Shown here piece by piece: positions 19,555 through 64,000 of a stretch of DNA of 64,000 bases. Location of the stretch: the NCBI GenBank assembly GCA_964016885.1, contig OZ024741.1:272738001-272802000 (forward strand), written 5' to 3'. The stretch is from Eledone cirrhosa (taxonomy: Eukaryota). The first letter of the stretch is position 1. Each line of letters starts with the position of its first letter. Below the pieces are notes generated by a model. That model worked only from the letters and a program-made list of their open reading frames with translations, ran no database searches and was not told the origin of the DNA. The translations under genes and the position numbers were made by a program.

Positions 19555-19591
<37 letters not shown>

Positions 19592-19594
<3 letters not shown>

Positions 19595-19873: not shown

Positions 19874-19880
<7 letters not shown>
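19592..19880. mobile_element. Fold-back insert in (TA)n with a hammerhead in each inverted arm
   Basis: 19592-19664 is the reverse complement of 19741-19813. The right arm reads CGAG-CTGAGGA-TCC-GCTAA-GGT-GAAA-CAATTG-TT-CTTG. Confidence 0.65.
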
Positions 19881-40058: not shown

Positions 40059-40910
40059 CAGGTTGCGAACGATATCTGTTCGCAAGATTACTGTCTAGGA
40101 AAAAATAACAGTAGTTTTATTTTTTAAGATATATTTATCAAACTTGGGTCAGTTTGTCTTCATGACTTGTTCTTTCGATCTCACTCGATAAACTCGCCAT
40201 TGGCTTTGATGACGGCCTCAAGGCGGCCTTGGAACCGGCTACAGGCCTTCGTCACTGTCCCCCGACACTTGTGATCCTGGCCTTCAGATCGTCTTTCGTA
40301 TTGCAGCTAGATCTGTTGGTGTCTCGTTCCACTGCGCCCCACACAAAGAAGTCGAGGGGGTTGCAGTCAGGCGAGCTGGGAGGCCAGATGTCAGGTGAAG
40401 TGTGGTCGACAAAGTTCTCTGACAGCCAGGCTTGGGTCTTTCGGCTGGTATGGCAGGGTGCTGAGTCTTGCTGCCACACGTACAGCCTACCTGCAGCTAC
40501 CTGGTTGATCCAGGGCTTTACTACCTCGCTAAGAATGCGGATGTAGCCATCGGTGTTTAGCTTGAGGCCCTCAGGGAAGAAGTGAGGTGGCATGACATCA
40601 CCTTGACTGCTGACGACACCTAAGTCCGATGTTGTCGCTGGAAACTTTGCCTGCATGACTCTGGGCACGTCTTTGGATGAGACACCATTCTCCTGCTGAT
40701 GCTGAGAAAGTGTGAAATTTCCTTATTTGTCCTCCCGGCGCGGATTCCAAGAAGAACTCCGTGTCTCTTCCACAAATTTGGAAGTTCAAAATTATTCATA
40801 ATCAATTATTCTGAAAATAAATAATGGAAATATAGTCACTGTTTTTATGAAGACAAGAGTGACAACGGAAGTAATAAAAATTTGCATCAACAGATGTCGT
40901 CCGCACCCTG
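40059..40910 (-). mobile_element. Internally deleted Tc1/mariner element, DD37D (maT) type
   Basis: TIRs CAGGTTGCGAACGATATCTGTT / AACAGATGTCGTCCGCACCCTG with TA flanks. ORF 40252-40668 has WQQDSAPCH...WPPSSPDCNPLD with 37 residues between the last two catalytic Asp. Confidence 0.9.
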
Positions 40911-41462: not shown

Positions 41463-43474
41463 TATCTCTTTCTCTTAATTTCGAGTATTTTTTTTGACTG
41501 GCCACCTTCCTGGTGGCAAGGTTGTAAAAGAAAAGAAATTGTCATCCCTTGAATCGCAAGAATGTTTTGCAAATTTTGAAGGTGCCAGCTATCGCAGCCA
41601 TTTGTAGACTATGAATTAGGGAGCTGCGCTTTTTGTCCGCAAATCCAAGTTCAGTCATACTTTGGTCCAAGCGGGTTGGTATATAACCCGTAGCTCCAAT
41701 AATGATGGGTATGAAGCTAAAGGTGTATCTTGGATACTGGATTTGTAAACTCCTCATCAATGGTCCGTAGATGTCCTCCTTCTCCTGTATTTTTCTGACA
41801 ACGTTTACATCAAGTGGGCAGCTGATCTCCACAACAGAACACGTTCTCAATGTGTGGTCCCAAACAACAATATCAGGCCGGCTGTGCTTTAATTTGGTGG
41901 CCGTTTTTATTTTCAGGTTCCACCAGTATTCCTTAGTGCCAGCTGTCTCTATATATTCCTCCTCGTTTGTTGTTAATTTTGTTTTCCGAAGTGCGTTCCA
42001 GATGGTTCTAGCTATCCCTTCGTGTCTCATGGGGAGGTAGTAGCGAGATGACATTCTTTCGCAGCTGGCAACAATGTGGCTTACATCCTCGATCTGTGTT
42101 TTACATAGCCTACATTTATTGTCAGCTGCTGGCCCTCCTCTTTTGTGCAGCAGATATTTGGTAGGGAGTTCTTGTTCCTGTATTGCATAACACAGTAAAA
42201 ACCTCCCAGCCCCACACTGTAAATGTGGTTGGTGTTAGGAAGGGCATCCAGCTGTAGAAAACCCACCATACAGTCCTATGCAAGCAAGACAATCACTCTT
42301 GCCTCAAGTGGGAAAACCCCTGTCCAAACCCATGCAAGCGTGGAACACGGACGTTAAACGTTGATGATGATGATCATGATATCCCTCAAGGTGCGATGTC
42401 ATAAACTTGTCGGAACTCCATGCCAGGCTTTTTGAGTGGTTTATCCCCTCTATGGTCTGTGTTTTACGTCTCAAGTATTCATGCACATGTAAATTGGTCA
42501 ATTTTTTCATCTTGTTTGAACATTGAATAGGATCTTCCGATTTCTCTGGGTGAGAGATTTATATCAGGCTTTATTCCATATCTCTCCTCCAGATCAGTGG
42601 CTATTCTAATGATTTTTTTTTTCATGCTCATAAACCTGGGAAAGATGGTCGCCAACCTTTTTCCTCTGTTGAAGATGTTGCTTCAGTGTTACTATCCAGG
42701 TCTCATATGATGTTAATATTGATTTTAGACCCCGGCCACCTTCCTTGCGTGAGAAGTATAGCCTATCCACATCACCATTGATGTTAAAGTTCCCAGTAAC
42801 ACTGAGAAGTTTGCGAGTTCTAACATCCATCTCACTTAGTTCTTGCAATGACCAGTTCAGCAGGCCAAATGTTGGCGTTAAAATTGGCACAGCATAAGTA
42901 TTGTGGGCAATGTATTTGTTGTACGCTGACAGTTCTGATGACCATATTTTCTTTACTCTTCTGAGGTATTCAGTTCTGGTTCTCTCCTTATTTATGGGTC
43001 CATCATATCTGACATTCTCATCCTGTCCAAGATATCTGTAGTTGTCACCTGACTGTAGAGGTTGTATTGTCAGGCCGTTCATCTCTAGATTTCTAGAGGA
43101 GGGCACAGCTCTTCCACGTTTTACTGCCAAATATGCACACTTGGACTCACCAAATTTCATTTTGATGTCGGTTGAAAATTGTGTAATGAGGTCCAATTGT
43201 TTTTTGATGTCATTGATATTTGGCCCATACAACTTCAGGTCATCAACAAAGAAAAGATGGGAGATACTTCTGGGCCCACTTCTTTGTCCACCTTGTTTCC
43301 TGAGTAGGTAAGATAGTGGATTCAGTGAGAGAACGAAGAGTAGCACTGACAAGCTATCACCCTGAAAGATGCCCTTCTGGTAATGTATCTTATCAGTCTT
43401 AACCTGCTCCTTCTCACCTCTAAGGATCAAATTGGTGTACCAGTTCTTGGTCAGGCATTCAACAGCAGCTACCA
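41463..43474 (-). mobile_element. R4/Dong-like RLE-bearing non-LTR element, 5'-truncated copy 1 (SINE-tail insert at ~42189-42380)
   Basis: GIFQGDSLS, FFVDDLKLYG, YRYLG, RKEGGRGL; C-terminal RHEGIA...RPDIVV...EISCP...KEDIY; 3' end abuts (TATG)n. Confidence 0.85.
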
Positions 43475-43614
43475 ATGTATGTATGTATGTATGTATGTAT
43501 GAATGTATGAATGTATGTATGTATGAATGTATGTATGTATGAATGTATGTATGAATGTATGAATGTATGTATGTAAGTATGTATGAATATATGTATGTAT
43601 GTATGAATGTATGT

Positions 43615-46600
43615 TATCTCTTTCTCTTAATTTCGAGTATATTTTTTTGACCGGCCACGTTCCTGGTGGCAAGGTTGTAAAAGAAAAGAAATTGTCATCC
43701 CTTGAATCGCAAGAATGTTTTGCAAATTTTGAAGGTGCCAGCTATCGCAGCCATTTGTAGACTATGAAATAGGGAGCTGCGCTCTTTGTCCGCAAATCCA
43801 AGTTCAGTCATACTTTGGTCCAAGCGGGTTGGTATATAACCCGTAGCTCCAATAACGATGGGTATGAAGCTAAAGGTGTATCTTGGATACTGGATTTGTA
43901 AACTCGTCATCAATCGTCCGTAGATGTCCTCCTTCTCCTGTATTTTTCTGACAACGTTTACATCAAGTGGGCAGCTGATCTCCACAACAGAACACGTTTT
44001 CAATGTGTGGTCCCAAACAACAATATCAGGCCGGTTGTGCTTTAATTTGGTGGCAGTTTTTATTTTCAGGTTCCACCAGTATTCCTTAGTGCCATCTGTC
44101 TCAATATATTCCTCCTCGTTTGTTGTTAATTTTGTTTTCCGAAGTGCGTTCCAGATGGTTCTAGCTATCCCATCGTGTCTCATGGGGAGGTAGTAGCGAG
44201 ATGACATTCTTTCGCAGCTGGCAACAATGTGGCTTACATCCTCGATCTGTGTTTTACATAGCCTACATTTATTGTCAGCTGATGGCCCTCCCCTTTTGTG
44301 CAGCAGATATTTGGTAGGGAGTTCTTGTTCCTGTATTGCATAACACAGTAAAAACCTCCCAGCCCCACACTGTAAATGTGGTTGGTGTTAGGAAGGGCAT
44401 CCAGCTGTAGAAAACCCACCATACAGTCCTATGCAAGCAAGACAATCACTCTTGCCTCAAGTGGGAAAACCCCTGTCCAAACCCATGCAAGCGTGGAACA
44501 CGGACGTTAAACGTTGATGATGATGATCATGATATCCCTCAAGGTGCGATGTCATAAACTTGTCGGAACTCCATGCCAGGCTTTTTGAGTGGTTTATCCC
44601 CTCTATGGTCTGTGTTTTACGTCTCAAGTATTCATGCACATGTAAATTGGTCAATTTTTTCATCTTGTTTGAACATTGAATAGGATCTTCCGATTTCTCT
44701 GGGTGAGAGATTTATATCAGGCTTTATTCCATATCTCTCCTCCAGATCAGTGGCTATTCTAATGATTTTTTTTTTCATGCTCATAAACCTGGGAAAGATG
44801 GTCGCCAACCTTTTTCCTCTGTTGAAGATGTTGCTTCAGTGTTACTATCCAGGTCTCATATGATGTTAATATTGATTTTAGACCCCAGCCACCTTCCTTG
44901 CGTGAGAAGTATAGCCTATCCACATCACCATTGATGTTAAAGTTCCCAGTAACACTGAGAAGTTTGCGAGTTCTAACATCCATCTCACTTAGTTCTTGCA
45001 ATGACCAGTTCAGCAGGCCAAATGTTGGTGTTAAAATTGGCACAGCATAAGTATTGTGGGCAATGTATTTGTTGTACGCTGACAGTTCTGATGACCATAT
45101 TTTCTTTACTCTTCTGAGGTATTCAGTTCTGGTTCTCTCCTTATTTATGGGTCCATCATATCTGACATTCTCATCCTGTCCAAGATATCTGTAGTTGTCA
45201 CCTGACTGTAGAAGTTGTATTGTCAGGTCGTTCATATCTAGATTTCTAGAGGAGGGCACAGCTCTTCCACATTTTACTGCCAAATATGCACACTTGGACT
45301 CACCAAATTTCATTTTGATGTCTGTTGAAAATTGTGTAATGAGGTCCAATTGTTTCTTCATGTCATTGATATTTGGCCCATACAACTTCAGGTCATCAAC
45401 AAAGAAAAGATGGGAGATACTTCTGGACCCACTTCTTTGTTCACCTTGTTTCCTGAGTAAGTAAGATAGTGGATTTAGTGAGAGAACGAAGAGTAGCACT
45501 GAAAGATGCCCTTCTGGTAATGTACCTTATCAGTCTTAACCTGTTCCTTCTCACCTCTAAGGATCAAATTGGTGTACCAGTTCTTGGTCAGGCGTTCAAC
45601 AGCAGCTACCAGTGGTTGTGGGACTTTGGCTAACTGTAAAGCCTTAATAATCCACCCATGAGGTACACTATCAAATGCTTTTTTGATAGTCCAGCCACAC
45701 CACAGTCATGTTTCTGCGATTCTTTGTTGTTTTTTCTTGAATCATTTCATTTGTTAGTAGGTGATCTATGCAACCCCACACCTCCCTCTTTCGACCAGCT
45801 TGCTCAGGTGTTATAATGTTGTTGGTAGCACAATGATCCTGTAAGAACAGGTTAAGGCACCCAGTATATAATTTATACATGATGTTTTGGCAGGCTATTG
45901 GGCGGTAATTTTTAGCAAGGGTGGTTTGGCTATTTTTGGGAATGAGGAGAGTAGTGGCAGTTGATAACCATTTGGGCAGTTCTTGTGTGACTTTAATGGT
46001 TTCTCTAAACAGCCGTATGAGATCTTGCCGATAGAAAGTGAAATTCTTCAACCAGTATCCTGTTATGAGGTCTGGTCCTGGTGATTTCCTATTCAACATA
46101 TTCTGTAGAGCTGTTTCCAGTATTGACCCATCTATGTAGTATTGTTTTGTCTGGACATGTTGGCAGTAGTCCTGTTCCAGTTCTTTTAGCCATTTAGTTT
46201 GTCTGTTGAATCTGTCATCCGTTTCCCATACAGATCTCCAGTAACTCTCAACCTGCTCTTTTGAAGGGGTGTCATTTACAGAGATTGAGCTTTTGCCACC
46301 GAAGCTGCGATAAACTGATTTAGGATCTCTGGCAAACAATCTATTTAGCACTTGTCGTTTATGTGCTGTTGACTTATATTTTAGTCTTTATGATGTAGCT
46401 GTGAGTTGTTGTTTCAACTGGTGTAATTTAGAGTTTAAAGTTTTAAATTTTGTATCTCTAAATCGTCTCTCTAATTTTTTTTTTTACGTCTTCCTGGTGT
46501 CGTGTGAATTTGCTCTCTATGGTGCATTTCATAAAGACTGCGATGTGTGAGATACTTCGTCTCAGGGACAAAATTTTGCTTTTTAAATTTCGTATCCACA

Positions 46601-46690
46601 CTGGTTCAGGCTTTTTGTTTGAATCTTGATTGCGTGGTTTTAGATGTTTTTTATATGATAGCAATGTGACAGCTGAAACATATAACAAAA
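43615..46690 (-). mobile_element. R4/Dong-like element, longer copy 2 (same insert at ~44342-44533)
   Basis: Near-identical to copy 1 at a 2153-bp offset, then continues with KSPGPD, NYRPIAC and WLDYQK. Confidence 0.87.
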
Positions 46691-46691
46691 T

Positions 46692-47237
46692 GTGTCGAAT
46701 GGGCAGGCTACATCCACAATCAGGCACAATCTTTTTTCCTTGTCCAACACCACCAGGTCAGGTCTATTGTGTTCCAGTTTCTTGTCCATCTGTATCCTAA
46801 AATCCCACAGCACCTTCACTTGATCGTTTTCTATCACTAACTCTGGCTTATGCTCATACCACTTCTCAGAATGTGGTAAATTGTTTACTTTGCATAGGTG
46901 CCAGTGGATCACCCTGCCCATCACATCATGTCTCCAGCCTTTATAGTGAGTCTGGGCTAGGTGTTTACACTCGGATACAATGTGAGCCACAGTCTCCTCT
47001 CTCTCTCCACAGATCCTACACAGTGGGCTAGCCTCCTCCTTGTAAATATGGTGTTTCAGCCACTTCGTTTTGAGGGCCTGCTCTTGCGCAGCCATTAGCA
47101 TTTCTTCTGTAGCCTTTTTAAGGTTTCCTCTTTTCAACCAGTTCCATGTTTGTGGATCTCAGTTTTCTCAAAGAAGGTACAATGAAGGGATTTTTCATGA
47201 AGGTTTCTCTTTCTCCTTGTTGTTATTTCCTCCTTGG
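46692..47237 (-). mobile_element. R4-like 3' fragment, second family (CCHC plus RLE)
   Basis: AAQEQAL...CRICGE..ETVAHIVSEC...RHD...NRPDLVV...DVACP; same family as 57170-58040. Confidence 0.8.
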
Positions 47238-49067
47238 ACAATCACTGGTATTGTAATGGCCTTGAGGTGCCACATTTTCTCAATTTCAATAAGCAGGTCT
47301 TTATATTTTCGTAGCTTGTCAAATTCTTTTGCCGCGATATAGTGATCACATGGGATGCTCATATCTATCAATAAACAGACCTTGTTATGTAGGCACATGG
47401 CTTAGTGGTTAGAGCATTGGCCTTGCAATCGAAAGATTGCGAGTTCAATTCTCAGGCTGGGTGATATGTTGTTTCCTTGAGCAAGACACTTTATTTTCCA
47501 TTGCTCCAGTTTACTCAGCTGTAGAAATGAGATGATAGAGACTGGGGTCCATATCCTTCCACTGCAAAGTGGTCGTGGAGGTGCCACGACAAAAAAGCAC
47601 CCAGCACTCACTGTAAATGAGGTTGGTGTTAGGAAGGGCATCCAGCTGTAGAAATCACGCCAGAATCAGTTCCCGTCCCACCCTTGCAAGCAGGGAAAAG
47701 TGGACGTAAAATGATGATGATGATGATGATGTCAAATTCTTTTGCCGCGATATTGTGATCACATAGGATGCTCATATCTATCAACAAACAGACCTTTTTA
47801 TATTGATCTTTTATAATGATGTCAGGTCTATTTGCTTTTATGGTCCTGTCAGGAAAGTCCTAGAGAATTGTTACTTTTTCTCCTTCAGTTACAGCCTCAG
47901 TGTGATGATTGTACCACTTGTCTTCAGCTTTGATTTTGTAATGCCGACATATTACCCAGTGTAGATATTGGCCAACTCTGTCATGTCTATATTTGTATTC
48001 TACTGGTGCTAAAACTTTACATCCAGAGACTAAGTGATCCTCTGTTTCAACCTCAGCATTGCAGAATTGGCACTTTGGGTTTATTCCGTTTCTCATCACA
48101 TTGGCCTGGTAATTACGAGTCAATAAGCTTTGATCTTGGGCAGCTAAGATGACGCCCTCACTCTCCGCCTTTAGCCCTGAACTACGTAGCCACTGATGGG
48201 TGTGCTTTTGGTCAAGATCAGCTTGTTTGCTATGGGCCACATATTTGCCATGCAGAGGTTTCTGCTCCCAATTTGATGCTAATTGTCCTTGCCCTTTTGC
48301 TTTTGCCAGTGAATTTATGTGCCTAGCAGCATCAGTTGCAACAGTTTCTTTAGTCTGTCCAGCCTGGGTATCAAGCACGAGATCAATAGCATATTTTATG
48401 CTCTCCTTCAAGATAGAATGACGCTTCTTACTTCTCTCATGCTTTTCAACAAGTTTCAGCATACAGTCGTTAGTTGTTTCAAGGTATTTGGACAGTCCAA
48501 TGGTCGTGGTCTTGTAAGCAAGTTCAAATTGGATCAGGCCACGGTCTCCTTGAGTTCTAGGAAGGTAAAGACGATCCACATCTGCTTTTGGGTGGTGCAT
48601 CCTATTACAGGTCAGTAGCTTACGGACTTTGGTGTCGATTCTTTTGATTTCACTCATATTCCAGTTCAACACACCGAAGCTATAAGTGACAACTGGGACT
48701 GCCAAGGAATTTATGGCTAGCACCTTGTTACGAACGTTTAGTTCTGTTCTCAGAACTGCACGTACTCTCCTGTAACATTCTTTCCTTATCCTCTCTTTCA
48801 TACTTGCATGCTGTATGCCAGAGCCCTCATTAATCCCTAAGTATTTATAGGTTTGTTCCTGCTCAAGTTCCTTTATGATTGTTTCAGCCTCCAATTCAAC
48901 TGAGTCTGAGTTGACAAGCTACCCCTTCTTGAAAGTGGCTTTTGCACACTTGTCAAGTCCAAACTCCATCCTGATGTCATCGCTAAAAGTTTTTACTGTC
49001 CGCAAAAGGCCTTCCAGTTCGTCATTATCTTTGCAATATAGCTTCAAATCATCCATATAAAATAGGT
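47238..49067 (-). mobile_element. R4-like fragment, third family, interrupted by a tRNA SINE (47391-47730, + strand)
   Basis: YMDDLK, YKYLG, MHHPKADVDRLY, AAQDQSL, CQFC..H...C, RHD, IDMSIP. Confidence 0.82.
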
Positions 49068-49091
49068 ATTATTATTATTATTATTATTATT

Positions 49092-51312
49092 ACAGTTGCA
49101 TTTATCTTGCTTTATGTTCATACGAGTTATCACAAAGTCACAACCAGTGACCTCAAGAGACAACAAGGTCCGCCATGTTCAAGAAAGAACATACATACAC
49201 ACACATGCATCTTTAGGTGTTTAGACTTGTGATGTACTTATATTGACAGAATCTTCCTTAGTATATGGGCAGTTCCCATTCGTACTATCTTTTGTATTTC
49301 TCCTATATGTGGGTTTCCTGGGATTTGCGATAAGTAATCATTAGACCCCTTAGGTATCATTCCTATAGCGCCTACAACCACTAGTATTGTTTTAGTTCTC
49401 AATTTCCACATTTTTCCAATTTCTATCTCCAGGTCCTTATACTTGCTCAATTTTTCAAATGTTTTTATAGATACATTCTTGTCTCTTGGAACGGACATAT
49501 CAATTAGCAGGCATACCCTATTTTTAAAGTCCTTCAGTATTATATCTGGTCTATTTGCATCTATTTTTCGGTCTGTTTGGATGCTAAAGTTCCACAAGAT
49601 TAAGATGTGGCCTTTTTCAAGTACGGGAGGTGGTTGATGCTCCCATCAATTCTTTTGATGAGGCAGGTCAAAATGCTTACACATTACCCAATGTATGTAT
49701 TGTGCAGCTCTGTCATGCCTGTTTAGGTATTCGGTTGGAGCTATAGGACTGCACATTGAAATTATATGATGAATGGTCTCTGGTTGTTTTTTACATACAC
49801 AGCATAAGGGGTTGCATCCATTTTTTATGATGTTGGCTTGATCATTTTTTTGTTGGCAGACACTGATCTTGTGCTGATATAATCAGTCCTTCAGTCTCCG
49901 ATTTCAGTCCAGAGGATGCCAACCACTGATGGGTTAAAGTTTTGTCAACATCAGGATTGTTAGCTCTTTCTGGGTATTTTCCATACAGAGGCTCTTCTTG
50001 CCATTTCTTAGTCAGTTTCTGTAGCAGTTCTTTCTTTGCAGTTACTTTTACCTGCTTTGCTTTTTCTGTGTTTATCATTTCAGCAGTAAAGGGAACATCT
50101 GAAATTTGTAGTTTATTACTGTATCTTTGTGCATATTTTGTAATGGAGTATGATCTTTTGATGCTTTCATGTTTCAAAACGAGTTTGATCATCCAATCAT
50201 GTGCCTCCCTTAGATATGTAGATAATCCAATTGTTGCAGTTTTCAAAGCAATATCTAACTGGATTAATCCATGTCCTTCTTCTTTCCTAGAGAGAAATAT
50301 TCTATCTCTATCTGCCTTAGGGTGATGCATTCTGTGCATGATTAAGAATTTTCTAATTTTTGTATCAAGCCTACGGATTTCTGTGCTTGACCAGTTGATG
50401 ATATTGTAACTGTAAGTTACTACTGGTATGGCAAGCGGGTTTATGGCATCGATCCTATTCCTTGCATTCAACTCCGTTCTTAAGATTGCTCTAACTCTGC
50501 GGGAACATTCTTTCCTTATCCTTTCCCTCAATGTCGAGTGCTTGATTCTGTTTTCTTCACAAACACCTAGATATTTGTAAATTTCCTCTGATCAAGTTCT
50601 CTTATAACATTCCCCCGATCAAGATTAATGTCTGAACTTCTCAGCAGCTTTCCTCTGGTGAACGTGGCTTTGGTGCATTTATCTAGTCCAAACTCCATAT
50701 TAATATGATCACTGAACTGCTTCACAGTGGATAATAGCCCTTGCAACTGCTCATCATTTTTTGCAAATAGTTTCAGGTCATCCATGTAGAACAAGTGATT
50801 AATGGTTTTGTCATAGACTTTATATCCATGTTTTGTTTCATTGAGCATTTTACTTAATGGTATAAGTGCGATGCAGAATAAAAGCGATGATAAAAAGTCA
50901 GCCTGAAAAATTCCACAATTAATATTAACTTCTCCAGCTTCCAGTGATTTTTTTTCACTGTTCAAAAGGAGTGTCGTTTTCCATGTTTTCAGACTGAATG
51001 ACAGGAACCTCCTGACAACGGGAGATATTTTGAAAATCTCTAAATACTTTTCAATCCAACTGTGTGGCAAACTATCAAATGCTTTTTTGTAATCTATCCA
51101 AGCAATTGATAGATTTTTGTGTCTATTATGACAATCTTCCAGTATCATTTTGTTAATTAAAAGCTGATCTTTACAGCCATATGAGCCTCGTTTATATCCT
51201 TTCTGCTCATTGGGAAATAGATCATTTGTTATCAGGTGATCATATGTATATTCAGTTAGGATTGATGTTAAGATTTTATACGTTGTGGTCAAGAAAGTTA
51301 TCGGTCTGTAAT
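49092..51312 (-). mobile_element. R4/Dong-like fragment, fourth family, 3' end in (TAA)n
   Basis: ORFs 50567-51292, 49842-50531 and 49238-49597: WIDYKKAFD, FYMDDLK, NRPDII, IDMSVP, KLSKYKDL. Confidence 0.85.
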
Positions 51313-51333
51313 TTTATTATTATTATTATTATT

Positions 51334-54300
51334 GGTCTGTTCGGACGTCTTTTTGCTTGCTCCCAGTAAGTCGCTTTATTTACCTGTTATAATTATTTGT
51401 TGTTAAATTGTTCTTGTTGCGTAAGGGATAAAAGCCCTTGGACTTTGCCCTGTGAAGGGGAAAGTATAATATTTGGGCCTTTTGGCCCAAACATCTGAAC
51501 ATTTTACTTAAAAAAAAAAAAAAAAGACATGGCTGAGCGACGACCCCCAGCAATATGTCTGCTGTCATGTAACAACAGCGTAAAAGTTGAGAGGAGGGTT
51601 ACAGAAATTGATACAACAAACACCACCACAAACAACGTGAACAAAGACAACAACACTGAGAACACTAATTTAAAACAAATTACCACACCAACTACAACAA
51701 TAACAGCGACAACCAAAATACAGAAAACAGAAAAAAATGACAACAAATGCAACAACCACTAACAAGAAAATAGAGGATAACACCAACAACAACAATACAA
51801 ATTGCACCGAAAACAACAACAACGGTGGCACCAAAAACACAACCAACTACAACATTGATAACAGCAACAACACTGTTTGTATCAGTAGCAACAGCAACAC
51901 CACCAACAACAAGACAAGAAGCAGCAGTAGCGGCAGCAATAATGGTGCCGCTGAAAAAGGGGCCACTTCTTTCGCAGGTGTGGCCCGAAATATAGAGACA
52001 GTGATAGTCACGGAGGAGGAGATGGCTGCTGCAAGAGCCATAGTGACAAGAAATGACGATAGAGTTTTCCGGAAACCTCCACCCGATTTCTTCAAAGACC
52101 AACAGCTGCGCACGGTGACTTACCACACCATAAACACCATAAGCAAAATGTCACATTGGGTGGAGAGAGCCACAGAGGCTCAAATCCAAAAGGCTTTGGG
52201 GTGCGTCTGGGCACGCAAAACCCACATCACCCGAGGCAAAAAGTACGCCACAGTAGACGTACTTTTCGCCCCCCCCCCCAAGAAGCTAAGTCTCACTCTT
52301 TGGAAACCCTAAAGAGTGAGGAGATAGTCTTGGTGCCCTCCTACCGCGGGCAGAAAATTGTGAGAGTCAAAGTGACCCAGGTTTTGCCCGACGTGCCCAT
52401 ATCTTGGCTGGCCGCATCTGTACTGGCTGGAATCGAGAAGACCACCATACTGCAAATACAGAGAATGGGAAGAGAGAACTGGTCAGGAATAGGCATGCTA
52501 ATACAAACTGACCAGGACAGCATCGAGGCTATCCCAGACATCATAGACCTCAAAGAAGGGCTCCAACTCCCTATAAGCATGGAAGGAAGGCGCCCAAAGT
52601 GCTATCTCTGTAGGCAGAAGGGTCACCTCAGGGCTTTCTGCCCGCAGAAGACAGCCAAGAAGAGGGCCCCCCATCCTTCTGACGCCTGATCCGTTGCTAC
52701 CAAGAGCAGGGCAGGCAACAGAGGCAGAAGACCTTTCCATGGTGAGTAGGAGGGCAACGTCTGTGGAACTCATACCAAGGCCACGGACTACTAAAACAGT
52801 GGCAGCAGTGGTGGCAACACCAACAGTCGCAGTAGTTACACCGGCGGCAAAATCGCCTGAGCGGGCTCCACTACCACCACCAACAGCAGTGGAGCTCATA
52901 CCCCTCCCAGATGCCATGGAATCCGACATGGAAGTGGCAAACGGTCTGCCACAAAAAACAAAAAAACAAAAAAAAACAAAAAAACCCTTAGCTTCACCCT
53001 CCAAAAGCGAAGGCAAACAAAGAGGGGTAAAGGCTGCAAGGAGACTTGCAGCAACGCCACCACCATCACCATCACCACCACAAGCATCACCGCCAACAAC
53101 AACCACACCACCACCACAAGCATCACCACCAACAACAACCACACCACCACCACCACCATCACCAAAAACACCAACATTGCAAACACAACAAAACACATAC
53201 ACCCAGCAGCAACAACAAGAAAACAGCAACAAAACCACCCCTCCCCCCAAAAAGTACACAGCCATAAACATGGCAAATAAAGAACTCTTATAACATAGAA
53301 AGCAGCACATAGACATCACAGAAAAAAATTACTACACCTCACCAACACCAAGAACTCTCCCGAAAAATATAAACATCATTGAAATTAAAATAGAACGTTA
53401 CAAACTTTTAAAAGAAAAATTCTCCAACGCAGTTGGAGACTTCAGAGAGTCGGTTACCAAAAGGATATACACCAACATCATCTTGGAAATACCCATGACC
53501 AGCCAAAGGGGCGGTTCTACTGTCCCTTCCCCACACGATCAAGGTAAGTGATCCTTTCTCACTTACCCCATTTCTCATCCAACATGGCCGTACTTAGAAT
53601 AGGCAGTATAAATGTACGTGGCCTGGGGTCATCTTGGAAGCAGGGTCACCTGCTCAACGACCTCAGGTCAGTAAACATAGATGTGGTGGCAATCAGCGAG
53701 ACCAGAATCTCCGAAGCACGAGCCTTCGCACCAATCTTCGGCTACGATGTATATGCATCTCCCAGCCGTCCAGGATCGGGGGGGGGGGGAGGAGTAGCTG
53801 TGCTTTTTCTGAGAGGCTTGGATCTCGCCATACAGACCATCTTCCTGAACCCAGAAGGTAAGTCGGTGGTTCTGTACGTGACCGGCAGTGAAGGCAATTC
53901 TTTCAGGCTAGTAGCCGTCTACGCCCCAACCGGGACAGGATGGCCAGATTTCTTCAGACCTCTAGAGACCTTTCTTGGGATGTCCCGCTCTTTAGTATTA
54001 GTGGGGGACTGGAACGGTATCTTAAATGCATGCTTGGATTATGTGGGACTAGTAGACAGAGCAGGAGGGTGTAACAGCCTCAACAACCTGCTCAGACGTT
54101 TTGAACTGTCTGACAGGTATCGACTGGATTATCCGAATGTGCCAATGTGGACATGGGCAAACCGCATCGGGTTATCCAGATCGTATTTAGATAGAGTATT
54201 CTGTAGGGAAATAGATAAGGCTAGTGTAGGTTGTCCACAATTTAAAGTAGTCGACTACACGGACCACAAATTCGTGATCTGTGAAGTTGACTTAGATAGA

Positions 54301-56935
54301 CGCCATAAGCAAGGGCCTGGTTACTGGAAGCTGAACGCTTCATTCCCGGCGCGCAAAGCTTACAGAGTCCGGATTAGCGAATTAGTTAAGTGTGCATTGA
54401 CGGGTGCGATCGTCATCAACAGGTGGTGGTTTACCCTGAAAAGGGCTATTTGAGTAGAATTGGTAAGGTTTAGCAAAGGAGTAATGATAGAGGAAAATAG
54501 AGTAGAGGGAGAGTTAGTTAGAAAGCTAGAAGAGGCGTTTAGGACAGGCATCGCAACCGACGTACTTGCGATGAGATTGGGCCGGATCGGACTATGGACT
54601 TCGGTGCATACCTCGATGGACCATCGCAGCTCTCAACCACCGCAGCACAGTGCTGCGAAAAGCCGATAACAGCAGGTGAAATAGGGGAAGCGATGTCTGA
54701 CTGCACAAGGGGTAAATTGCCAGGTTTGGATGGTCTGCCCTAGGAGCTTTATGCATATATGCCAGACTTGTCCGGCGACCTCTTGGCAGATGTCTACTGC
54801 AACTGGCAGCAGAACGGGAGCATTCCCAGTTTTGTGAGCCAGGGAGCGGTGGCGTTGCTGAGAAAAGATCCGAACAAGGGGGACGTTACAGACAACTTCA
54901 GGCCCATAACTCTGCTAAACGCAGAGTTTAAGATTTTGGCCAAGGTGTTAGCAAAGAGATTGGCGCTTGTCGCCGGTGATCTGGTGGGAGAGGCGCAGAC
55001 ATGCGCCATTCCGGACAGATCCATCCACGACAACCTCCATCCCATGCGATACATCATAGAGAGGGTGGTTAAGGAACCTGGAACGAGTGGGGCCCTGATC
55101 AACTTGGATCAATCTAAAGCATTTGATAGGGTCGACCATTGGTACCTGGCTGTCGTCCTTGAGGCAGCCAACTTCAGGCCCTTTTTAGGGGTTGGATCGC
55201 TGCGATGCAGAGCGACATCTGTTCGATTGTGAGGGTGAATGGTCACCTGTTGCATCCTTTCAGCATCATGCGCTCGGTCCGCCAGGATTGCCCCCTCTCG
55301 TCCCTCTTGTACGTACTGGCCCTCAAGCCGTTACTGCACAAATTGGAGATGATGAGGGGGGTCCCCTGCGAACTGGGGTGTGGGAGCTTACGCTGACGAC
55401 GTCACCATGGTGGTGTCAAGCACCAAACACAGCCAGATGCTCAGCCCGCTCTCATGGAATATGAAGCAGTGACAGGAGCAAAAATAAACCAGGAAAAGTT
55501 GGTGGGTTGCAATTCGGCACCTGGAGAGGCAAGTTCATGCCGTCCGAAGGACTGGTTGAATTGCTCAGGGTCTGGTTCGGTCGGGACCTCCAGATGAAGA
55601 AAAACTGGAGTGAGGTGATGAGCAGGGTGGCCTCTCTCACCCAGAAATGGGCCGAGAGGAGGCTGTCTCTGAAAGGTCGGGCAGAGGCGTTGAATGCGTA
55701 CATCGCGTCCATCATCTACTACCGCTTGACCGTCGTACTTTGTCCCACCCAACTCTGACCAAATTGGAGCACCTTCTCTTCCGCTTTTTGTGGAAGGGAC
55801 ATGCTCCCATGGTCAGACGATCCCTTTGCTGTCAACACCCATTGCGTGGAGGACTAGGCATGCTGTGGCTGATGATGCGCAAACATGCGCTGAGGCTGCA
55901 ACATCTCTGGTGCTTCCTTGACGGTGAACAGATGTGGTCGCCGTTTGCCAGACGCGCTTTGCCCCAGCTCATCTCCTTGATGGAGCTGCAGTTCTGGATC
56001 AGGAAAAGACCGAGGGATAGCGCTTGGAAGCTGGAATGTCTCCAAGCGCTCACCGCCCTCTACCAGCTGGGCACTTGTATCGGTGGAACATCCACCTCGG
56101 CGTTCCATAGAGGGCTAGTGGAGGGAAATAGCGACAACGTTCTCGGGGAGACCCTGGGCGTCGAAGAAGATCAGCCGTTCACTCTCTTCAAGAGAACTTT
56201 CAGACCGGGGCCTATGGACAACTTCCAGAAATCCTTGGCCTGGCAGTGCTACCGGGGAGCATTGCCGGTTCGGGATAAGCTCTACAGGTACGCTCTTGTT
56301 CAGGATTGCTGACTTGTGGAGCTATGTCGAACAGCTGGTGTCGCGTGTAGGACGGATCCGGTTATCGACTGAATCCATTGTGCAGATAGCCCCGCCATCC
56401 TCCCTTAAAGAGGAGGATGGCGGGGCAGTTTTCATCTGCCTGGTGGCCATGGCGAAAGAGATTGTGTGGTGGACAAGGTTGAAAGGGTTAAAGACAGACA
56501 CTTTCCTCTTCGGCGAATCCCTAATTAACTCTTTCAAGTTTCACTTGAAGAGGAAAATCAGGCTGGAGAGGCAAGTGCTGTCTTCTAGTAAGTTTGTTGA
56601 AAGGTGGGTAAAAGTGGCGAGTCTGGTTCGAGTGAACGGGCCCGCTCTAAGTATGCGCCTGTAGACTGAGGAGTGGGAAAACTGAGAGAGGGCGCTTGCC
56701 CTGGTGGTCAGGATGGCCGTGGTATTTTGTGTGATTTTTGCCACGAGTGACCCTCGGAGGTTTCCCCCTTTTTGGCGAATTTTTGTTGTTTGAATTTTTT
56801 TTTATTTCTATCCTGATTTCTATCTTGTTACAACCTGTTTACACGACCAAAACCCACTTTGTATCTTCCTGTACTGTTCTGTGTTGTCTCTAATGTTTTT
56901 CTTCATGTTAGCCCTTGTGGCCAATAAAGAAAGCA
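51334..56935 (+). mobile_element. Near full-length degenerate L1/Tx1-like LINE between (ATT)n tracts
   Basis: ORF1 pieces with CYLCRQKGHLRAFC; ORF2 53584-56664 with APE (INVRGL, SET, GDWN, DRVF, TDH) and RT (NFRPITLLN, DQSKAFDRV, YADD). AATAAA near 56923; (ATT)n at 51311-51333 and 56935-56982. Confidence 0.88.
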
Positions 56936-56950
56936 TTATTATTATTATCA

Positions 56951-56982
<32 letters not shown>

Positions 56983-57169
56983 GGGAGAGGGTCGGACGCC
57001 ATGCTTTGACGTATATAGTTACGGCCCTTGCCATTCTGAGTTCAAATTCCGCCGAGGTTAACTTTGCCTTTCATCCTTACGGGGTCGATAAAATAAAGTA
57101 CCAGTAATGCACTGGGTAATTGCTGGCCTTGTGCCTAACGTAGAAACAATTATTATTATTATTATTGTT

Positions 57170-58040
57170 CGAGTCTCAGTCATTGATGTTATTTAACTGG
57201 AAAGTTTGTTCAAATGAACATCAAACCGCTACCTGCAGCCTCAGATATACAGGACATATCGGAGGGTTGTTGCTGTTCCCAGCAAGCATGCCTTTTGAAG
57301 TGTTCCAAAAAAGCGGGGCTGGACTAATCTTCTTTAACCATCCTTGAAAACTCTTTGAGATAGTACCTAGTGCGCCTATGACAATCGGGACGAACTTGAT
57401 CTCATGATAGTCCCAAATTCTTTTAAATCCCACTTTAAATCCTGGTATCGGTTAATTTTCTCCTTTCCTTTTCTTGCACTCTTGTGTCAAATGGGCAGGC
57501 TACATCTACAATCAGGCACAATCTTTTTTCCTTGTCCAAAACCACCAGGTCAGGCCTATTGTGTTCTAATTTCTTTTCCGTCTGTATCCTAAAATCCCAT
57601 AGCACCTTCACCTGATCGTTTTCTATCACCGACTCTGGCTTGTGCTCATACCACTTCTCAGAATGTGGTCAATTGTTTACTTTGCATAGGTGCCAGTAGA
57701 TCACCCTGCCCATCACATCATGTCTCCAGCCTTTATAGTGAGTCTGGGCTAGGTGTTTGCACTTGGATACAATGTGAGCCAGAGTCTCCCCTCTCTCTCT
57801 CCACAGATCCTACACAGTGAGCTAGCCTCCTCCTTGTCAATATGGTGTTTCACCCACTTCATTCTGAGAGCTTGCTCTTGTGCAGCCATTATCATTCCTT
57901 CTGTAGCTTTTTTAAGTTCTCCTCTTTTTAACCAGTTCCATGTCTGTGGATATCTGAATTCCGTTTTCTTAAAGAAGGTACTATGAAGGGATTTTTTATG
58001 AAGGTTGCTCTTCTTCCTTGTTGTTATTTCCTCCTTGGCA
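57170..58040 (-). mobile_element. R4-like 3' fragment ending at (TAA)n
   Basis: AAQEQAL, CRICGE, NRPDLVV, VPIVIGALG; high similarity to 46692-47237. Confidence 0.8.
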
Positions 58041-58044
58041 GCAA

Positions 58045-58730
58045 AGCTACAGGAGAAGAATATGTTGCATAAGGAACTCAAGGATGTGAAATCACGTGTG
58101 AGGCAGAGGCTTTCTCAGATGAATGATAAGTGGTGGAGTGAGAAGGCTGATGAGATACAAGCTGCATCAGATCACAAAGCTGTTGTACAGTCTCTTGCAT
58201 GAAGTTTATGGACTATCTTCTTCTCTGGTGACACTGCTTCGCAGCAAGGATGGCAGGGAACTTCTTCGTGACTCACAAGGAATTCTGCGAAGGTGGCGAG
58301 AGCACTTTGACAAACTTTTGAATCAGCCATCTGTCGTCAATGAAGATTTCCTCAATCTCATTCCTGAAAATCCTGTGAAAGTAGCTCTCGCAGAACCACC
58401 GACGCTTGTGGAGGTTGCAGTGGCTATCTCGAAGCTGAACAGTAGAAGGTCTCCAGGTATGGATGGCATACATGCAGAGCTCTTACAATATGGTGGTGAG
58501 AGACTTCTGCAACATCTCCACGCTTTGTTTGGTAGGATATGGGCTAGTGAATCCAAACCGGATGACTGGAAAGGGTAACAAGAATGATTGTGGAAACTAC
58601 AGGGGTATATCATCGCTTTCTGTCGTAGGAAAATTTTTATTTGGGGTTCTTCTGGATCGTCTGCTGACACACATTGCAGATTGTGCTCTTCTTGAAAGTC
58701 AATATGGTTTTCATAAAATCGCTCGGTATG
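58045..58730 (+). mobile_element. RTE-like LINE internal fragment
   Basis: RWREHFDKLLN, RSPGMDGIHAELLQYGG, CGNYRGIS, ESQYGF. Confidence 0.8.
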
Positions 58731-59065
58731 CAAGTTAGGCTAATCAGCCAATGTATACTTTAAAGAATACTATTTATTCTCAAGAGTTCCATTGGGTGCC
58801 AGAAGAGAGATACACAATCTTGACAAGGGGCAATAACCCAGAAACAATATTATTGTCACTACTAGAACAAAAGGATGGCAAAGGTCATCTGAAGAATGTA
58901 GCGTAATGAGACTGTTTGCTTACAAACAAATTGAATATTATTTAGAGGGTTGGACTCCATGCTTTGCAGCAAAGAGTTACGGCTCTTTATGGTCTGAGTT
59001 CAAATCCCGCCGAGGATAACTTTGCCTTTCATCCTTACGGGGTCAATAAAATAAAGTACCAGTAA

Positions 59066-59459
59066 TCATCATCATCATCATCATTTTACGTCCACTTTTC
59101 CCTGCTTGCAAGGGTGGGACGGGAACTGATTCTGGCTTGATTTCTACAGCTGGATGCCCTTCCTAACACCAACCTCATTTACAGTGAGTGCTGGGTGCTT
59201 TTTTTTGCTGTGGCGCCTCCACGACTACTTTACAGTGAGTGCTGGGTGCTTTTTTGACGTGGCACCTCCACGACCACTTTGCAGTGGAATGATAGGGACC
59301 CCAGTCCCTATCATCTCATTTCTACAACTGAGTAAACTGGAGCAATGTGAAATAAAGTGTCTTGCTCAAGTAAACAACACATCACTCGGTCTGAGAATTG
59401 AACTCATAACCTTTCGATTGCAAGGCCAATGCTCTAACCACTAAGCCATGTGCCTCCAT
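59066..59459 (-). mobile_element. tRNA-head SINE nested in a Nin-like SINE (~58945-59530)
   Basis: Same family as 34755. The host SINE breaks at ...GTACCAGTAAT and resumes at TAATGTACTGGG. Confidence 0.85.
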
Positions 59460-60426
59460 AATGTACTGGGTAATGTACTGGGTAATGTACTGGGTAATTG
59501 CTGGCCTTGTGCCAAAAGTAGAAACAATTATTATTATCATCATCCGGTGGATTGTCAGTATCGGTAGAACGTCAGCCGCCATGCTTTTCAGCATAGAGTT
59601 ATGGCCCTTTACGTTCTGAGTTCAAATCCCGCCGAGGTTAGCTTTGGCTTTCATCCTTACGGAGTCGATAAAATAAAGTACCAGTAATGCACTGGGGTCG
59701 ATTTAATCGACTTTCCCCCCTCCCCAAATTACTGGCCTTGTGCCTATAGTAGAAACCAATATCATCATCATCATCACCATCATCATTATTATCACCGTCA
59801 TCTTTTAATGTCCATTTTGCTCGTTTGGCCATTCATATTTATGTGTGTGTATGTGTACCTATGTGTGTGTGCCCGTGCATGCGTATGTGTGTATATTAGT
59901 GTGTGTATGTGTGTCTGAGCATGTGTGTGTAAGTGTGTGTTTATGTATGTTTGTGTGCTGTTTGTATATGTATGTGTGGCCGTGTATGATTGTGTTTGTG
60001 TACGTGTGTATGTATATATGTATCTGTGTGTGCATGCAATCATATATGTGTGTGTACAAGTGCGCATGTGTATGTGTGTTTGTATGTGTGTGCTTCAGTG
60101 TGTGTAGGTGTGTGTGTGTATGCATAAGTTAGTGTGTGTGCACATGTATGTGTATGTATGTGTGTATGTGTGTATGTGTGCACATGTATGCCTATGTATG
60201 TGTGCAAGTGTGCACATGTATGTGTGTATGTGTGTCAGTGTGTGTGTATATAATTCAGTGATATTCACTGTTGTAAAAAAACAACTAATGCACCAGATTA
60301 TACAATTGGTGCTGATTGTATTTTATACAAAGGAACCACTTAAAACCCTGAATGTGTGATAATGTGTGTATTGGGTATTGAGATTTTAATTATATTGCAT
60401 GTGTACACACACACACACACATATAC

Positions 60427-60465
<39 letters not shown>

Positions 60466-60507
60466 TGTATATATATATATATATATATACATGTATATAT
60501 ATATATA

Positions 60508-61160
60508 TCATCATCATCATCATTGTTTAACGTCCATCTTCCACGCTAACATGGGTTTGGACGGGAATTGTCCCAAGATTGGTTGTCTTGCTCAGGACTG
60601 TCTGGCGGGTTTTCTACGGCTGGATGCCCTTCCTAACACCAACCACGTTTACAGTGTGGACTGGGAGGTTTTTACCGTGTTAGCTACACGGCCACATTAC
60701 AGCGTGAACTGTGTGTTTTTTGTCGTGACACCTACACGACCTCATTTATTTAGGACTGGATGTTGTGGAACCAACATAGCTTTACATCGAAAGGGGTGGT
60801 GTAGATGGCGGTGGGGGTAGAGTTAGTGGGTTGGGGGTGTATTTTGGTTAAGAGGTGCCTACTGACTGTAGGTTTCGCTTTGTACTTAGGCAAGGCGGAT
60901 CTTCTGTATTACTACGTAGCGCCAAAGATCTCGGTCCAGTGACATTGTCTTGGAGAGGTATAAGTGTGTGAGGTCAGATTTTATCAAGTCGTCCCAGGTT
61001 TTTCTGGGTCTGCCTACTCCGTAGCTACCGTCTATTTTGATCACCCTGCACTTTTTTATACAGCTGTCATCTTTCATGCGCATCATGTGACCATACCAAC
61101 GTAGTCTTCTCTCGAGTAAACAGCATCTGATCCCTCTTATTCCTAATTTTTCACTTAGTT
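60508..61160 (-). mobile_element. RTE-like LINE 3' fragment (family of 6317-9198)
   Basis: Aligns with 6317-6980; ORF 60886-61086 includes GRPRKTWDDLIKSD. Confidence 0.85.
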
Positions 61161-61183
61161 TATATATATATATATATATATAT

Positions 61184-64000
61184 ATTATGAAGAGAGAAGA
61201 AACATTTAGATATAATTAGTAATAAAATGTATCATACCTAAACTGTTCCTAAATTCCTCGACTACGTAGTTTCGTGGCATAAACAAAAACAATATATCAA
61301 AGATATAGAGTCCTTGCGAGGTCTGCCGACTTATCAAGAGGATACCTCATTTTACTAGTCTCAAGAACGCGTCTACACGACGTGAGAAAGAATCCCAAAA
61401 GGCGGAGGGGGAGATAGTCACGCGATATAACGGTCGAGAAACAGAGCTAAGCCTCTTATAACCACGAAGAAAATACCACGGAGGCGGAGGGGGTATTCAT
61501 ATCGAGGCCGTAGAAGAGGTAGTGAAGAAGGCGAGAAGTATGAGTAATGGAAGCTTTCCAGTTGTCCCCACACTTCAAAGATTGCTCGACCAGAGGGAGT
61601 TATTAATATATTTAAAAACACACAGATACATGCGGACACACACATATATACATGAATGCATCCGCACCCAACTGTGAGTTAAGGGTGCCAACTTCACCGA
61701 TGTTGCTCAATGAATGACTGGGACAGACCAATTCAGTTTGAACCAGACTGAACCAGTATCAGAGTTAAAAATACATTATGAAGAGAGAAGAAACATTTAG
61801 ATATAATTAGTAATAAAATGTATCATACCTAAACTGTTCCTAAATTCCTCGACTACGTAGTTTCGTGGCATAAACAAAAACAATATATCAAAGATATAGA
61901 GTCCTTGCGAGGTCTGCCGACTTATCAAGAGGATACCTCATTTTACTAGTCTCAAGAACGCGTCTACACGACGTGAGAAAGAATCCCAAAAGGCGGAGGG
62001 GGAGATAGTCACGCGATATAACGGTCGAGAAACAGAGCTAAGCCTCTTATAACCACGAAGAAAATACCACGGAGGCGGAGGGGGTATTCATATCGAGGCC
62101 GTAGAAGAGGTAGTGAAGAAGGCGAGAAGTATGAGTAATGGAAGCTTTCCAGTTGTCCCCACACTTCAAAGATTGCTCGACCAGAGGGAGTTATTAATAT
62201 ATTTAAAAACACACAGATACATGCGGACACACACATATATACATGAATGCATCCGCACCCAACTGTGAGTTAAGGGTGCCAACTTCACCGATGTTGCTCA
62301 ATGAATGACTGGGACAGACCAATTCAGTTTGAACCAGACTGAACCAGTATCAGAGTTAAAAATACATTATGAAGAGATATGAATACCCCCTCCGCCTCCG
62401 TGGTATTTTCTTCGTGGTTATAAGAGGCTTAGCTCTGTTTCTCGACCGTTATATCGCGTGACTATCTCCCCCTCCGCCTTTTGGGATTCTTTCTCACGTC
62501 GTGTAGACGCGTTCTTGAGACTAGTAAAATGAGGTATCCTCTTGATAAGTCGGCAGACCTCGCAAGGACTCTATATCTTTGATATATTGTTTTTGTTTAT
62601 GCCACGAAACTACGTAGTCGAGGAATTTAGGAACAGTTTAGGTATGATACATTTTATTACTAATTATATCTAAATGTTTCTTCTCTCTTCATAATGTATT
62701 TTTAACTCTGATACTGGTTCAGTCTGGTTCAAACTGAATTGGTCTGTCCCAGTCATTCATTGAGCAACATCGGTGAAGTTGGCACCCTTAACTCACAGTT
62801 GGGTGCGGATGCATTCATGTATATATGTGTGTGTCCGCATGTATCTGTGTGTTTTTAAATATATTAATAACTCCCTCTGGTCGAGCAATCTTTGAAGTGT
62901 GGGGACAACTGGAAAGCTTCCATTACTCATACTTCTCGCCTTCTTCACTACCTCTTCTACGGCCTCGATATGAATACCCCCTCCGCCTCCGTGGTATTTT
63001 CTTCGTGGTTATAAGAGGCTTAGCTCTGTTTCTCGACCGTTATATCGCGTGACTATCTCCCCCTCCGCCTTTTGGGATTCTTTCTCACGTCGTGTAGACG
63101 CGTTCTTGAGACTAGTAAAATGAGGTATCCTCTTGATAAGTCGGCAGACCTCGCAAGGACTCTATATCTTTGATATATTGTTTTTGTTTATGCCACGAAA
63201 CTACGTAGTCGAGGAATTTAGGAACAGTTTAGGTATGATACATTTTATTACTAATTATATCTAAATGTTTCTTCTCTCTTCATAATGTATTTTTAACTCT
63301 GATACTGGTTCAGTCTGGTTCAAACTGAATTGGTCTGTCCCAGTCATTCATTGAGCAACATCGGTGAAGTTGGCACCCTTAACTCACAGTTGGGTGCGGA
63401 TGCATTCATGTATATATGTGTGTGTCCGCATGTATCTGTGTGTTTTTAAATATATTAATAACTCCCTCTGGTCGAGCAATCTTTGAAGTGTGGGGACAAC
63501 TGGAAAGCTTCCATTACTCATACTTCTCGCCTTCTTCACTACCTCTTCTACGGCCTCGATATGAATACCCCCTCCGCCTCCGTGGTATTTTCTTCGTGGT
63601 TATAAGAGGCTTAGCTCTGTTTCTCGACCGTTATATCGCGTGACTATCTCCCCCTCCGCCTTTTGGGATTCTTTCTCACGTCGTGTAGACGCGTTCTTGA
63701 GACTAGTAAAATGAGGTATCCTCTTGATAAGTCGGCAGACCTCGCAAGGACTCTATATCTTTGATATATTGTTTTTGTTTATGCCACGAAACTACGTAGT
63801 CGAGGAATTTAGGAACAGTTTAGGTATGATACATTTTATTACTAATTATATCTAAATGTTTCTTCTCTCTTCATAATGTATTTTTAACTCTGATACTGGT
63901 TCAGTCTGGTTCAAACTGAATTGGTCTGTCCCAGTCATTCATTGAGCAACATCGGTGAAGTTGGCACCCTTAACTCACAGTTGGGTGCGGATGCATTCAT
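61184..64000. mobile_element. 591-bp tandem array with internal inversion (2 units on -, at least 2.75 units on +); retrozyme- or pLTR-like
   Basis: Unit starts at 61184, 61775 and 62366 (left arm) and 62376, 62967 and 63558 (right arm, reverse complement). Copies look identical; the left end abuts (TA)n. Confidence 0.9.
62537..62624 (+). ncRNA. Type I hammerhead ribozyme, U3-A8 core variant (copies 63128-63215 and 63719-63806 on +; 61255-61342 and 61846-61933 on -)
   Basis: Stem I TCCTC/GAGGA; core TTGATAA; stem II GT(C)GGCA/TGCCAC; GAAA; stem III palindrome ACTACGTAGT; GUC cleavage site after 62619. Confidence 0.8.

Follow-up and report, generated by a model that had tools for sequence, protein, structure and literature searches.

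A U3-A8 hammerhead with palindromic stem III and a candidate pseudoknot in a retrozyme-like tandem element of Eledone cirrhosa

The 591-bp element and its ribozyme motif

The window, meaning the whole stretch of 64,000 nucleotides of Eledone cirrhosa DNA that was analysed, ends on its right side in an element built from 591-bp tandem units, arranged in an inverted and a direct arm. Every unit contains a hammerhead motif, one copy of which had been described in a first-pass annotation. The element and the parts of the ribozyme are as follows.

61180..62383, minus strand: inverted arm (unit 299-591, 1-591, 1-320), with its outer end at unit 320 beside (TA)n
62376..64000, plus strand: direct arm of 2.8 units; it ends at unit 485, 46 bases past the window, followed by (TA)n
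62380..62970, plus strand: one 591-bp tandem unit, whose longest ATG frame is 75 aa
62700..62864, plus strand: 165-nt "tail" between the fixed ends at unit 320 and unit 485, the putative reverse-transcription start sites
62537..62624, plus strand: type I hammerhead motif, from stem I to stem I; the copy of the first-pass annotation
62542..62548, plus strand: core U3 U4 G5 A6 U7 A8 A9 (UUGAUAA)
62549..62605, plus strand: extended stem II: 5 proximal bp interrupted by a bulged C/U at 62551, followed by the internal loop and the distal hairpin
62563..62595, plus strand: distal hairpin of stem II, which covaries between subfamilies
62606..62619, plus strand: GAA, palindromic stem III (62609-62618) and C17, with the predicted cut after 62619
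63128..63215, plus strand: identical ribozyme copy, direct arm
63719..63806, plus strand: identical ribozyme copy, direct arm
61846..61933, minus strand: identical ribozyme copy, inverted arm
61255..61342, minus strand: identical ribozyme copy, inverted arm

The window thus holds five identical ribozyme copies, three on the plus and two on the minus strand. Stem I pairs UCCUC (62537-62541) with GAGGA (62620-62624). The palindrome ACUACGUAGU occupies 62609-62618 and includes A15.1 and U16.1; C17 is position 62619. Stem II starts with G-C, U-A and a bulged C, continues with three further pairs and spans 57 nt in all, with ACCUCG in its internal loop; the distal hairpin is predicted with a pair probability of 0.99. 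The letters and coordinates given in the first-pass annotation are all exact (GAGGU at 62531-62535, ACCUC at 62557-62561, the core, the palindrome and AAAU/AUUU). Its "large loop II" was correctly placed, but the region folds as a short internal loop (ACCUCG) plus the distal hairpin and not as an open loop.

The motif agrees with the hammerhead core consensus YUGANRA...GAAA...UH with a 3-8 base pair (UUGAUAA, GAAA and UC), and three stems surround the core, open at stem I; in each of these stems, 95.7-98.3% of cells are paired. G10.1 directly follows A9, leaving no unpaired base between 9 and 10.1, unlike minimal hammerheads of Penelope-like elements (PLEs). Compared with shuffles, the 88-nt motif alone reaches a z of only -2.1, and the fold of the 591-bp unit a z of -5.4 against 100 shuffles. 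Rfam hammerhead families give no match at E<=1 in 54000-64000. The first-pass statement that a plain CUGANGA search would miss this ribozyme is borne out by the absence of CUGANGA from 62400-62700. CUGANGA searches and Rfam thus overlook thousands of ribozyme copies in one genome.

The family is abundant. A motif pattern run over the 3.0-Gb genome gives 7,121 matches and its reversed control 0, and a DNA search with the unit recovers at least 180 scored pieces at 98-100% identity, with older subfamilies reaching down to ~70%. The difference between 7,121 and 0 matches, together with the compensatory changes between subfamilies described below, means that the motif is not a product of chance. 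The unit is also present in 6 sequencing runs from 3 studies, which are of unrecorded kind and cannot show expression; contigs from 4 of these runs contain no listed variant in 62526-62583, and run X3 has TA-tailed loose ends at 62699 and 62864. Judged from sequence, a likely functional type I hammerhead ribozyme is present in every 591-bp unit, and the motif very probably represents a genuine hammerhead lineage.

Conservation of the fold and the candidate pseudoknot

Covariation across genomic copies, proposed as a check in the first-pass annotation, was examined in an alignment of 103 distinct copies (7 of 110 distinct sequences, mostly truncated or deleted, were left out). Pairing is kept in 94.2% of cells, against 32-50% in slid controls. 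Two-sided changes occur in stem I (C-G 75, U-A 23), in the palindrome (A-U 76, G-C 25; C-G 93, U-A 5) and in the distal hairpin (C-G 58, U-G 28, U-A 16), although these counts reflect few subfamily events and not 103 independent ones. The copies form four subfamilies, ~70% identical, between which stem I, the palindrome and the distal hairpin covary, while the catalytic positions and the UC cleavage triplet are all kept in spite of ~30% difference elsewhere.

U3-A8 is present in all 103 distinct sampled copies, whose extraction tolerated at most 2 changes within the core region, with some of the loci taken from core-bearing patterns. Genome-wide, C3 occurs in only 6 copies, all of them C3-A8, and no C3-G8 copy exists among the matches to the genome-wide pattern. 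The U3-A8 pair is therefore old and fixed, and not a sign of decay. This upholds the first-pass reading of selection rather than decay; the two-step change from C3-G8 to U3-A8 that it assumed is recorded in no copy. The same pair is found in at least four other hammerhead families of this genome. Taken together, the sequence comparisons support a hammerhead under structural selection and not one in decay.

Stem III shows a similar constancy. Three subfamilies have ACGU as its loop and the oldest mostly has GCGC or GUAC, all of them self-complementary. The monomer hairpin is calculated at +1.5 kcal/mol, that is, unstable, and the self-duplex at -12.9. A dimer needs a self-complementary loop and a monomer does not, so its retention fits the pairing of two ribozymes, as the earlier suggestion that the palindrome favours dimers had it.

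Several of these features are known from Penelope hammerheads, and their novelty had been overstated in the first-pass annotation. The text available from Cervera & de la Pena 2014 (PMC4209133) describes the U3-A8 variant in hammerheads of Schistosoma Cercyon elements, which are Penelope-associated, and a small palindromic helix III in Penelope hammerheads of D. virilis, shrimp and mosquito. With the hammerheads presented there, the Eledone ribozyme has in common type I topology, a 5-bp helix I, G10.1-C11.1, a helix II bulge, the palindromic helix III, U3-A8 and opposite-strand copies 100-700 bp apart. It differs from them, as far as that text goes, in having no extra base between 9 and 10.1, no attached reverse transcriptase (RT) ORF, an extended stem II of 57 nt that includes an internal loop and a distal hairpin, and a candidate pseudoknot. 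By analogy with tested Penelope hammerheads, its activity is probably slow or protein-assisted.

The strands involved in the candidate pseudoknot and in the folds that compete with it are listed here.

62530..62535, plus strand: leader UGAGGU, predicted 5' strand of the pseudoknot, which can also fold back on stem I
62531..62541, plus strand: alternative leader hairpin GAGG-UAU-CCUC
62557..62562, plus strand: ACCUCG, 5' strand of the internal loop and predicted 3' strand of the pseudoknot
62436..62449, plus strand: upstream strand (unit 57-70), for which RNAalifold predicts, from the subfamily alignment, a pairing with unit 233-248 that covers the cut site; its changes are one-sided only

The complement between leader and internal loop comprises 6 bp, UGAGGU with ACCUCG, including one U-G, and 95.6% of its cells are paired in the 103 distinct copies. 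Perreault et al. 2011 (PMC3088659), in the text available, describe pseudoknot hammerheads as having a helix of at least 4 pairs that joins stems I and II, in ~40% of hammerheads and in all three types, and list U3-A8 as a natural hammerhead variant generally. With 6 bp predicted between leader and stem II loop, the Eledone ribozyme exceeds this minimum; unlike in the cases described there, the predicted partner is an internal loop within an extended stem II, and stem III of the ribozyme is palindromic. The pistol-like pseudoknot hammerhead of Zhan et al. 2024 (PMC11300833) likewise combines a hammerhead core with a pseudoknot, which in the part of that paper at hand replaces helix II; that form is ruled out here, helix II being present and conserved.

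Within the family the outer pair is the sole pseudoknot pair that varies (U-A 83, U-G 17, C-G 2), and the other five of the six undergo no compensatory change. UGAGGU/ACCUCR is kept in four subfamilies at 11 of 12 columns against a background of 310 of 441, which is not significant alone (~0.09). The flanks of the pseudoknot vary, and the internal-loop strand that faces ACCUCR does so freely, only 1 of its 5 columns being kept. The oldest subfamily has UUCUC/GAGAA as its stem I, which weakens the leader hairpin, with UGAGGU and ACCUCA unchanged. A leader starting CGAGG is found in 181 genome copies, with the matching G in 97 of the first 100, but this evidence is weak, given the predominance of G-type copies and the possibility that one subfamily represents a single event; none of the 100 A-type copies listed starts with CGAGG. 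The leader also has two other, equally good complements inside its own unit.

Neither the carrier retroelement nor the rival folds that hide stem I had been considered in the first-pass annotation. In the whole-unit fold (ViennaRNA, with no pseudoknots modelled), stem I has probability 0 and the cross-unit stem III 0.001. In the same kind of model, the rival leader hairpin reaches 0.62-0.87 in the whole unit and 0.62-0.90 over longer contexts. The upstream strand at 62436..62449 may represent an off-state. The proposed AAAU/AUUU closure (AAAU 62527-62530 with AUUU 62625-62628) has to be dropped: it can form in 15 of 103 copies, young ones only, and costs ~2.3 kcal/mol.

Eight long-stem-II hammerhead families were compared, found in ~1.5 Mb examined, part of it enriched by searches; C, F and H are single copies each and G is known from two. 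Most of the eight fold as a proximal stem, an internal loop and a distal hairpin. The own leader pairs with the own loop better than across families, the observed score being reached in 15 of 40,320 permutations over the 8 families (this replaces an earlier 8 of 40,320, a copy of family E having proved atypical), in 15 of 5,040 when the Eledone 591-bp family is removed and in 8 of 120 when the three families already seen at the time of setting the rule are removed. A leader complement occupies the corresponding position, with different letters, in families B, C, E, F and H. The best cross-family case is family B, a PLE pLTR hammerhead, with a 9-bp leader helix in 17 of 20 copies; in family E an 8-bp helix is present in only 1 of 34 copies, the typical helix being 4 bp. 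Families P and G have no leader helix above controls. A held-out scan (92 loci, 429 kb) yielded no new clean long-stem-II family; it returned three poorly folding long matches and one family G variant, none above shuffles, and one new short family with an 8-bp helix between leader and terminal loop.

The pseudoknot proposed in the first-pass annotation therefore stands in part: it is conserved and its geometry recurs in unrelated families, but most of its pairs are invariant and the held-out scan brought no clean case. On this comparative evidence, formation of the leader/internal-loop pseudoknot is moderately favoured. It would be a modest new element, the core and the palindrome being known features already. 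U3-A8, the palindromic stem III and hammerhead pseudoknots have each been published, and no single feature is new. Dimer-cleaving PLE hammerheads are reportedly the subject of Lunse et al. 2017, to go by its title. No description of a pseudoknot in palindromic PLE hammerheads was found in the literature, though that paper, represented by its title only, may contain one. Nor was any paper found that combines a U3-A8 palindromic PLE hammerhead with a pseudoknot, in a search that took in the available text of a 2026 preprint (see below) and the title of Lunse et al. 2017.

Insertion pattern, proposed mechanism and rival readings

Complete elements number 121, of which 66 are inverted. Among inverted elements with both ends classed, 54 of 58 have one end of each kind. 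The combination of one end at unit 320 and the other at unit 485 occurs in 53 of 57 inverted copies (duplicate dropped; binomial p 6e-12), eight inverted elements with an unclassed end being left out of this count. Of the 85 ends of each kind, 81 at unit 320 and 54 at unit 485 are flanked by TA repeats.

Marks of PLE insertion given in the text available from Craig et al. 2021 (PMC8557442) are partial tandems, an inverted truncated copy, a tail at one end and (TA)n targets. In the purified PLE system of Frangieh et al. 2024 (PMC11167929), as described in the part consulted, the RT starts at two internal sites, the sequence between which forms the tail, and both DNA strands are extended. The Eledone element has partial tandems with an inverted 5'-truncated copy, a tail at one end only, consistent with two internal RT starts, and (TA)n or AT-rich targets. 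It departs from the PLE insertions of these two sources in a tail of 165 nt rather than the reported 30-40 bp, in being non-coding and in the mixed ends of nearly all inverted copies. From the inverted truncated copy, the partial tandems, the one-end tail and the (TA)n targets together, we infer a non-autonomous element moved by Penelope machinery; Penelope-driven mobility can be held with good, if not quite the highest, confidence.

An RT and GIY-YIG ORF adjoining the element was found at none of the loci examined (the best 40 candidates per search). As an autonomous partner, the Penelope ORF of the window was rejected, having no similarity to the unit, and families B and P were rejected as direct partners, having no shared sequence beyond 26 nt. 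Family P, the nearest ORF-bearing family, matches 22 of 26 nt around stem I and core (pairwise E 0.002), is without the pseudoknot and has two fixed ends ~95 nt apart. A search for short-loop relatives of the ribozyme gave 8 matches, all of them deletion copies or chance reads of the Eledone 591-bp family.

Rare variants carry information on the template. In 38 multi-unit insertions, 24 are shared by all units (17 of these across both arms), 63 are confined to one unit, and none occurs in an intermediate number of units. This all-or-one distribution, seen in the genomic copies, suggests that the template was one unit long, for instance a circle, but re-use of a template or a source array of uniform units could have the same result. 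The cut site shows no accumulation of 5' ends, with 1 of 68 at unit 240-242, as expected for a circle or an uncut RNA and not for a cut linear template.

Like the non-LTR retrozymes treated in the available text of Cervera & de la Pena 2020 (PMC7229834) and of Li, Clavereau & Pollet 2026 (bioRxiv 10.64898/2026.07.22.740005), the element consists of non-coding tandem units, each with a type I hammerhead, and its 591-bp unit falls within the size range reported there. Both sources propose that PLEs move such retrozymes. The Eledone element differs from them, in those texts, in its palindrome-type ribozyme without the usual loop 1-loop 2 motif and in carrying direct marks of PLE insertion, namely an inversion, two fixed ends and a TA target. 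It is predicted to be blocked as a monomer, unlike most animal retrozymes as described there. For Xenopus retrozymes, the source consulted records that 8 of 9 dimers did not cleave. All in all, the Eledone ribozyme is most likely a dimer-dependent Penelope-type hammerhead with a Perreault-type pseudoknot in a retrozyme-like element.

The best explanation of the whole is a hammerhead in a protein-free tandem retroelement that is copied by a Penelope-like RT and endonuclease, and it is reasonably probable. Read-through transcripts would carry several units, and two ribozymes would pair through the palindromic stem III. The leader UGAGGU would dock on the internal-loop strand ACCUCR, setting stems I and II side by side and releasing stem I from the competing hairpin GAGG-UAU-CCUC. 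Once cut after C17, the RNA would be of unit length and probably circularised, although for the circular intermediate itself the chances look evenly balanced. A helper protein would introduce nicks into both DNA strands at a (TA)n tract and prime synthesis at unit 320 on one of them and at unit 485 on the other, each reading round the template. Such two-site priming would produce head-to-head multimeric arms with one end of each kind.

One rival keeps the same ribozyme and carrier and does away with the pseudoknot: UGAGGU would be kept as an inhibitory stem I hairpin or as a protein-binding sequence, and the match to ACCUC would be a by-product of the reuse of CCUC and GAGG in stem I. The strong predicted leader hairpin, the near absence of two-sided change in the pseudoknot, families P and G and the outcome of the held-out scan all agree with it. 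However, the hairpin is weakened in the oldest subfamily while both pseudoknot strands stay, the opposite internal-loop strand is free to vary, and five other families place a leader complement of different letters at the same position; this rival is unlikely. Docking of the leader in the internal loop remains the preferred reading. An alternative further removed holds that the fold is kept as a binding or folding element for the Penelope protein, with negligible cleavage that has no part in copying and arrays arising from uncut multimeric transcripts or template jumping. It agrees with the low activity of tested PLE hammerheads in the sources consulted, with the one purified PLE system in which, in the available text, ribozyme mutants did not alter insertion in vitro (PMC11167929), with the burial of stem I in whole-unit predicted folds and with a cut site almost devoid of 5' ends. 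It does not account for catalytic positions and a UC triplet kept over four otherwise diverged subfamilies, nor for rare variants common to all units, which speak for a unit-length template, and it is quite improbable. The missing Rfam match and the low z of the isolated motif would suit a hammerhead look-alike, decayed or arisen by chance, in an ordinary satellite. Three helices with compensatory changes, the fixed ends of the dispersed insertions and the fixed U3-A8 pair largely refute this reading and make it barely credible.

A bolder reading is offered tentatively and is doubtful: Penelope-type dimeric hammerheads would include a so far unrecognised pseudoknotted class, the leader would act as a switch (blocking stem I, or docking in the internal loop with the ribozyme on), and a 591-nt circle would be primed by a Penelope RT dimer at two fixed sites. 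If true, this would amount to genomic proof that Penelope machinery moves animal retrozymes, and it would explain the slow cutting of leader-less constructs. For the function of Penelope hammerheads, the cause of their slow in vitro cutting and the machinery that moves animal retrozymes, the Eledone 591-bp family makes a clean test case, being both young and abundant. Every helix has natural variants, and the family also offers a defined candidate tertiary contact and two mapped ends.

Other hammerheads and mobile elements in the window and genome

The genome is very rich in hammerheads, with ~20 distinct families in the 1.5 Mb examined, a partly search-enriched sample. Family P (L296-L325) is an ORF-bearing Penelope whose U3-A8 hammerhead has a stable stem III with a palindromic loop. 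Family B (L160-L179) has a canonical core and a GNRA-capped distal hairpin; it belongs to an ORF-bearing PLE and also occurs in tandem, at ~487 bp. A further U3-A8 family shows long covarying stem III palindromes (L211:-1148, L214:+3116, L222:-4866, L288:+81 and L313:+1318). In the window, a small hammerhead at ~14815 (plus strand) has a CUGAUGA core, a short stem II and the palindrome ACGU, and belongs to a repeated family.

The window also contains a 5'-truncated Penelope-like element at 15760-19470 (ORF 17412-19109, minus strand), which encodes an RT (YRDD), a Cys-rich linker and a GIY-YIG-like end and has an inverted 5' part and (TA)n flanks. Pfam gives no match on its protein, and its clade is read from motifs only. 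It is very abundant and young, with at least 77 scored copies at 97-100%, many with open frames of 738-747 aa, and carries its own canonical-core hammerhead at 15940-15992 (minus) and 19369-19421 (plus). A second, diverged Penelope-like ORF fragment (L031:6261-7999, minus strand), 36-43% identical to that of the window, lies ~2.2 kb to the right of the element with the 591-bp units.

Among the remaining repeats are a 15-bp satellite of ~358 copies (1-5374) and a ~320-bp element with internal inverted repeats between TA repeats (19555-19880); a piece related to the latter follows a GIY-YIG fragment in L211. Fragments that we take to be LINE RT/endonuclease-like and DDE transposase-like lie at 6706-9274, 21581-22934, 40252-40722, 41542-51313 and 53548-56664. 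A weak tRNA-like Rfam match at 59391-59448 (minus strand), with 28.7 bits against a threshold of 29, is possibly the head of a SINE.
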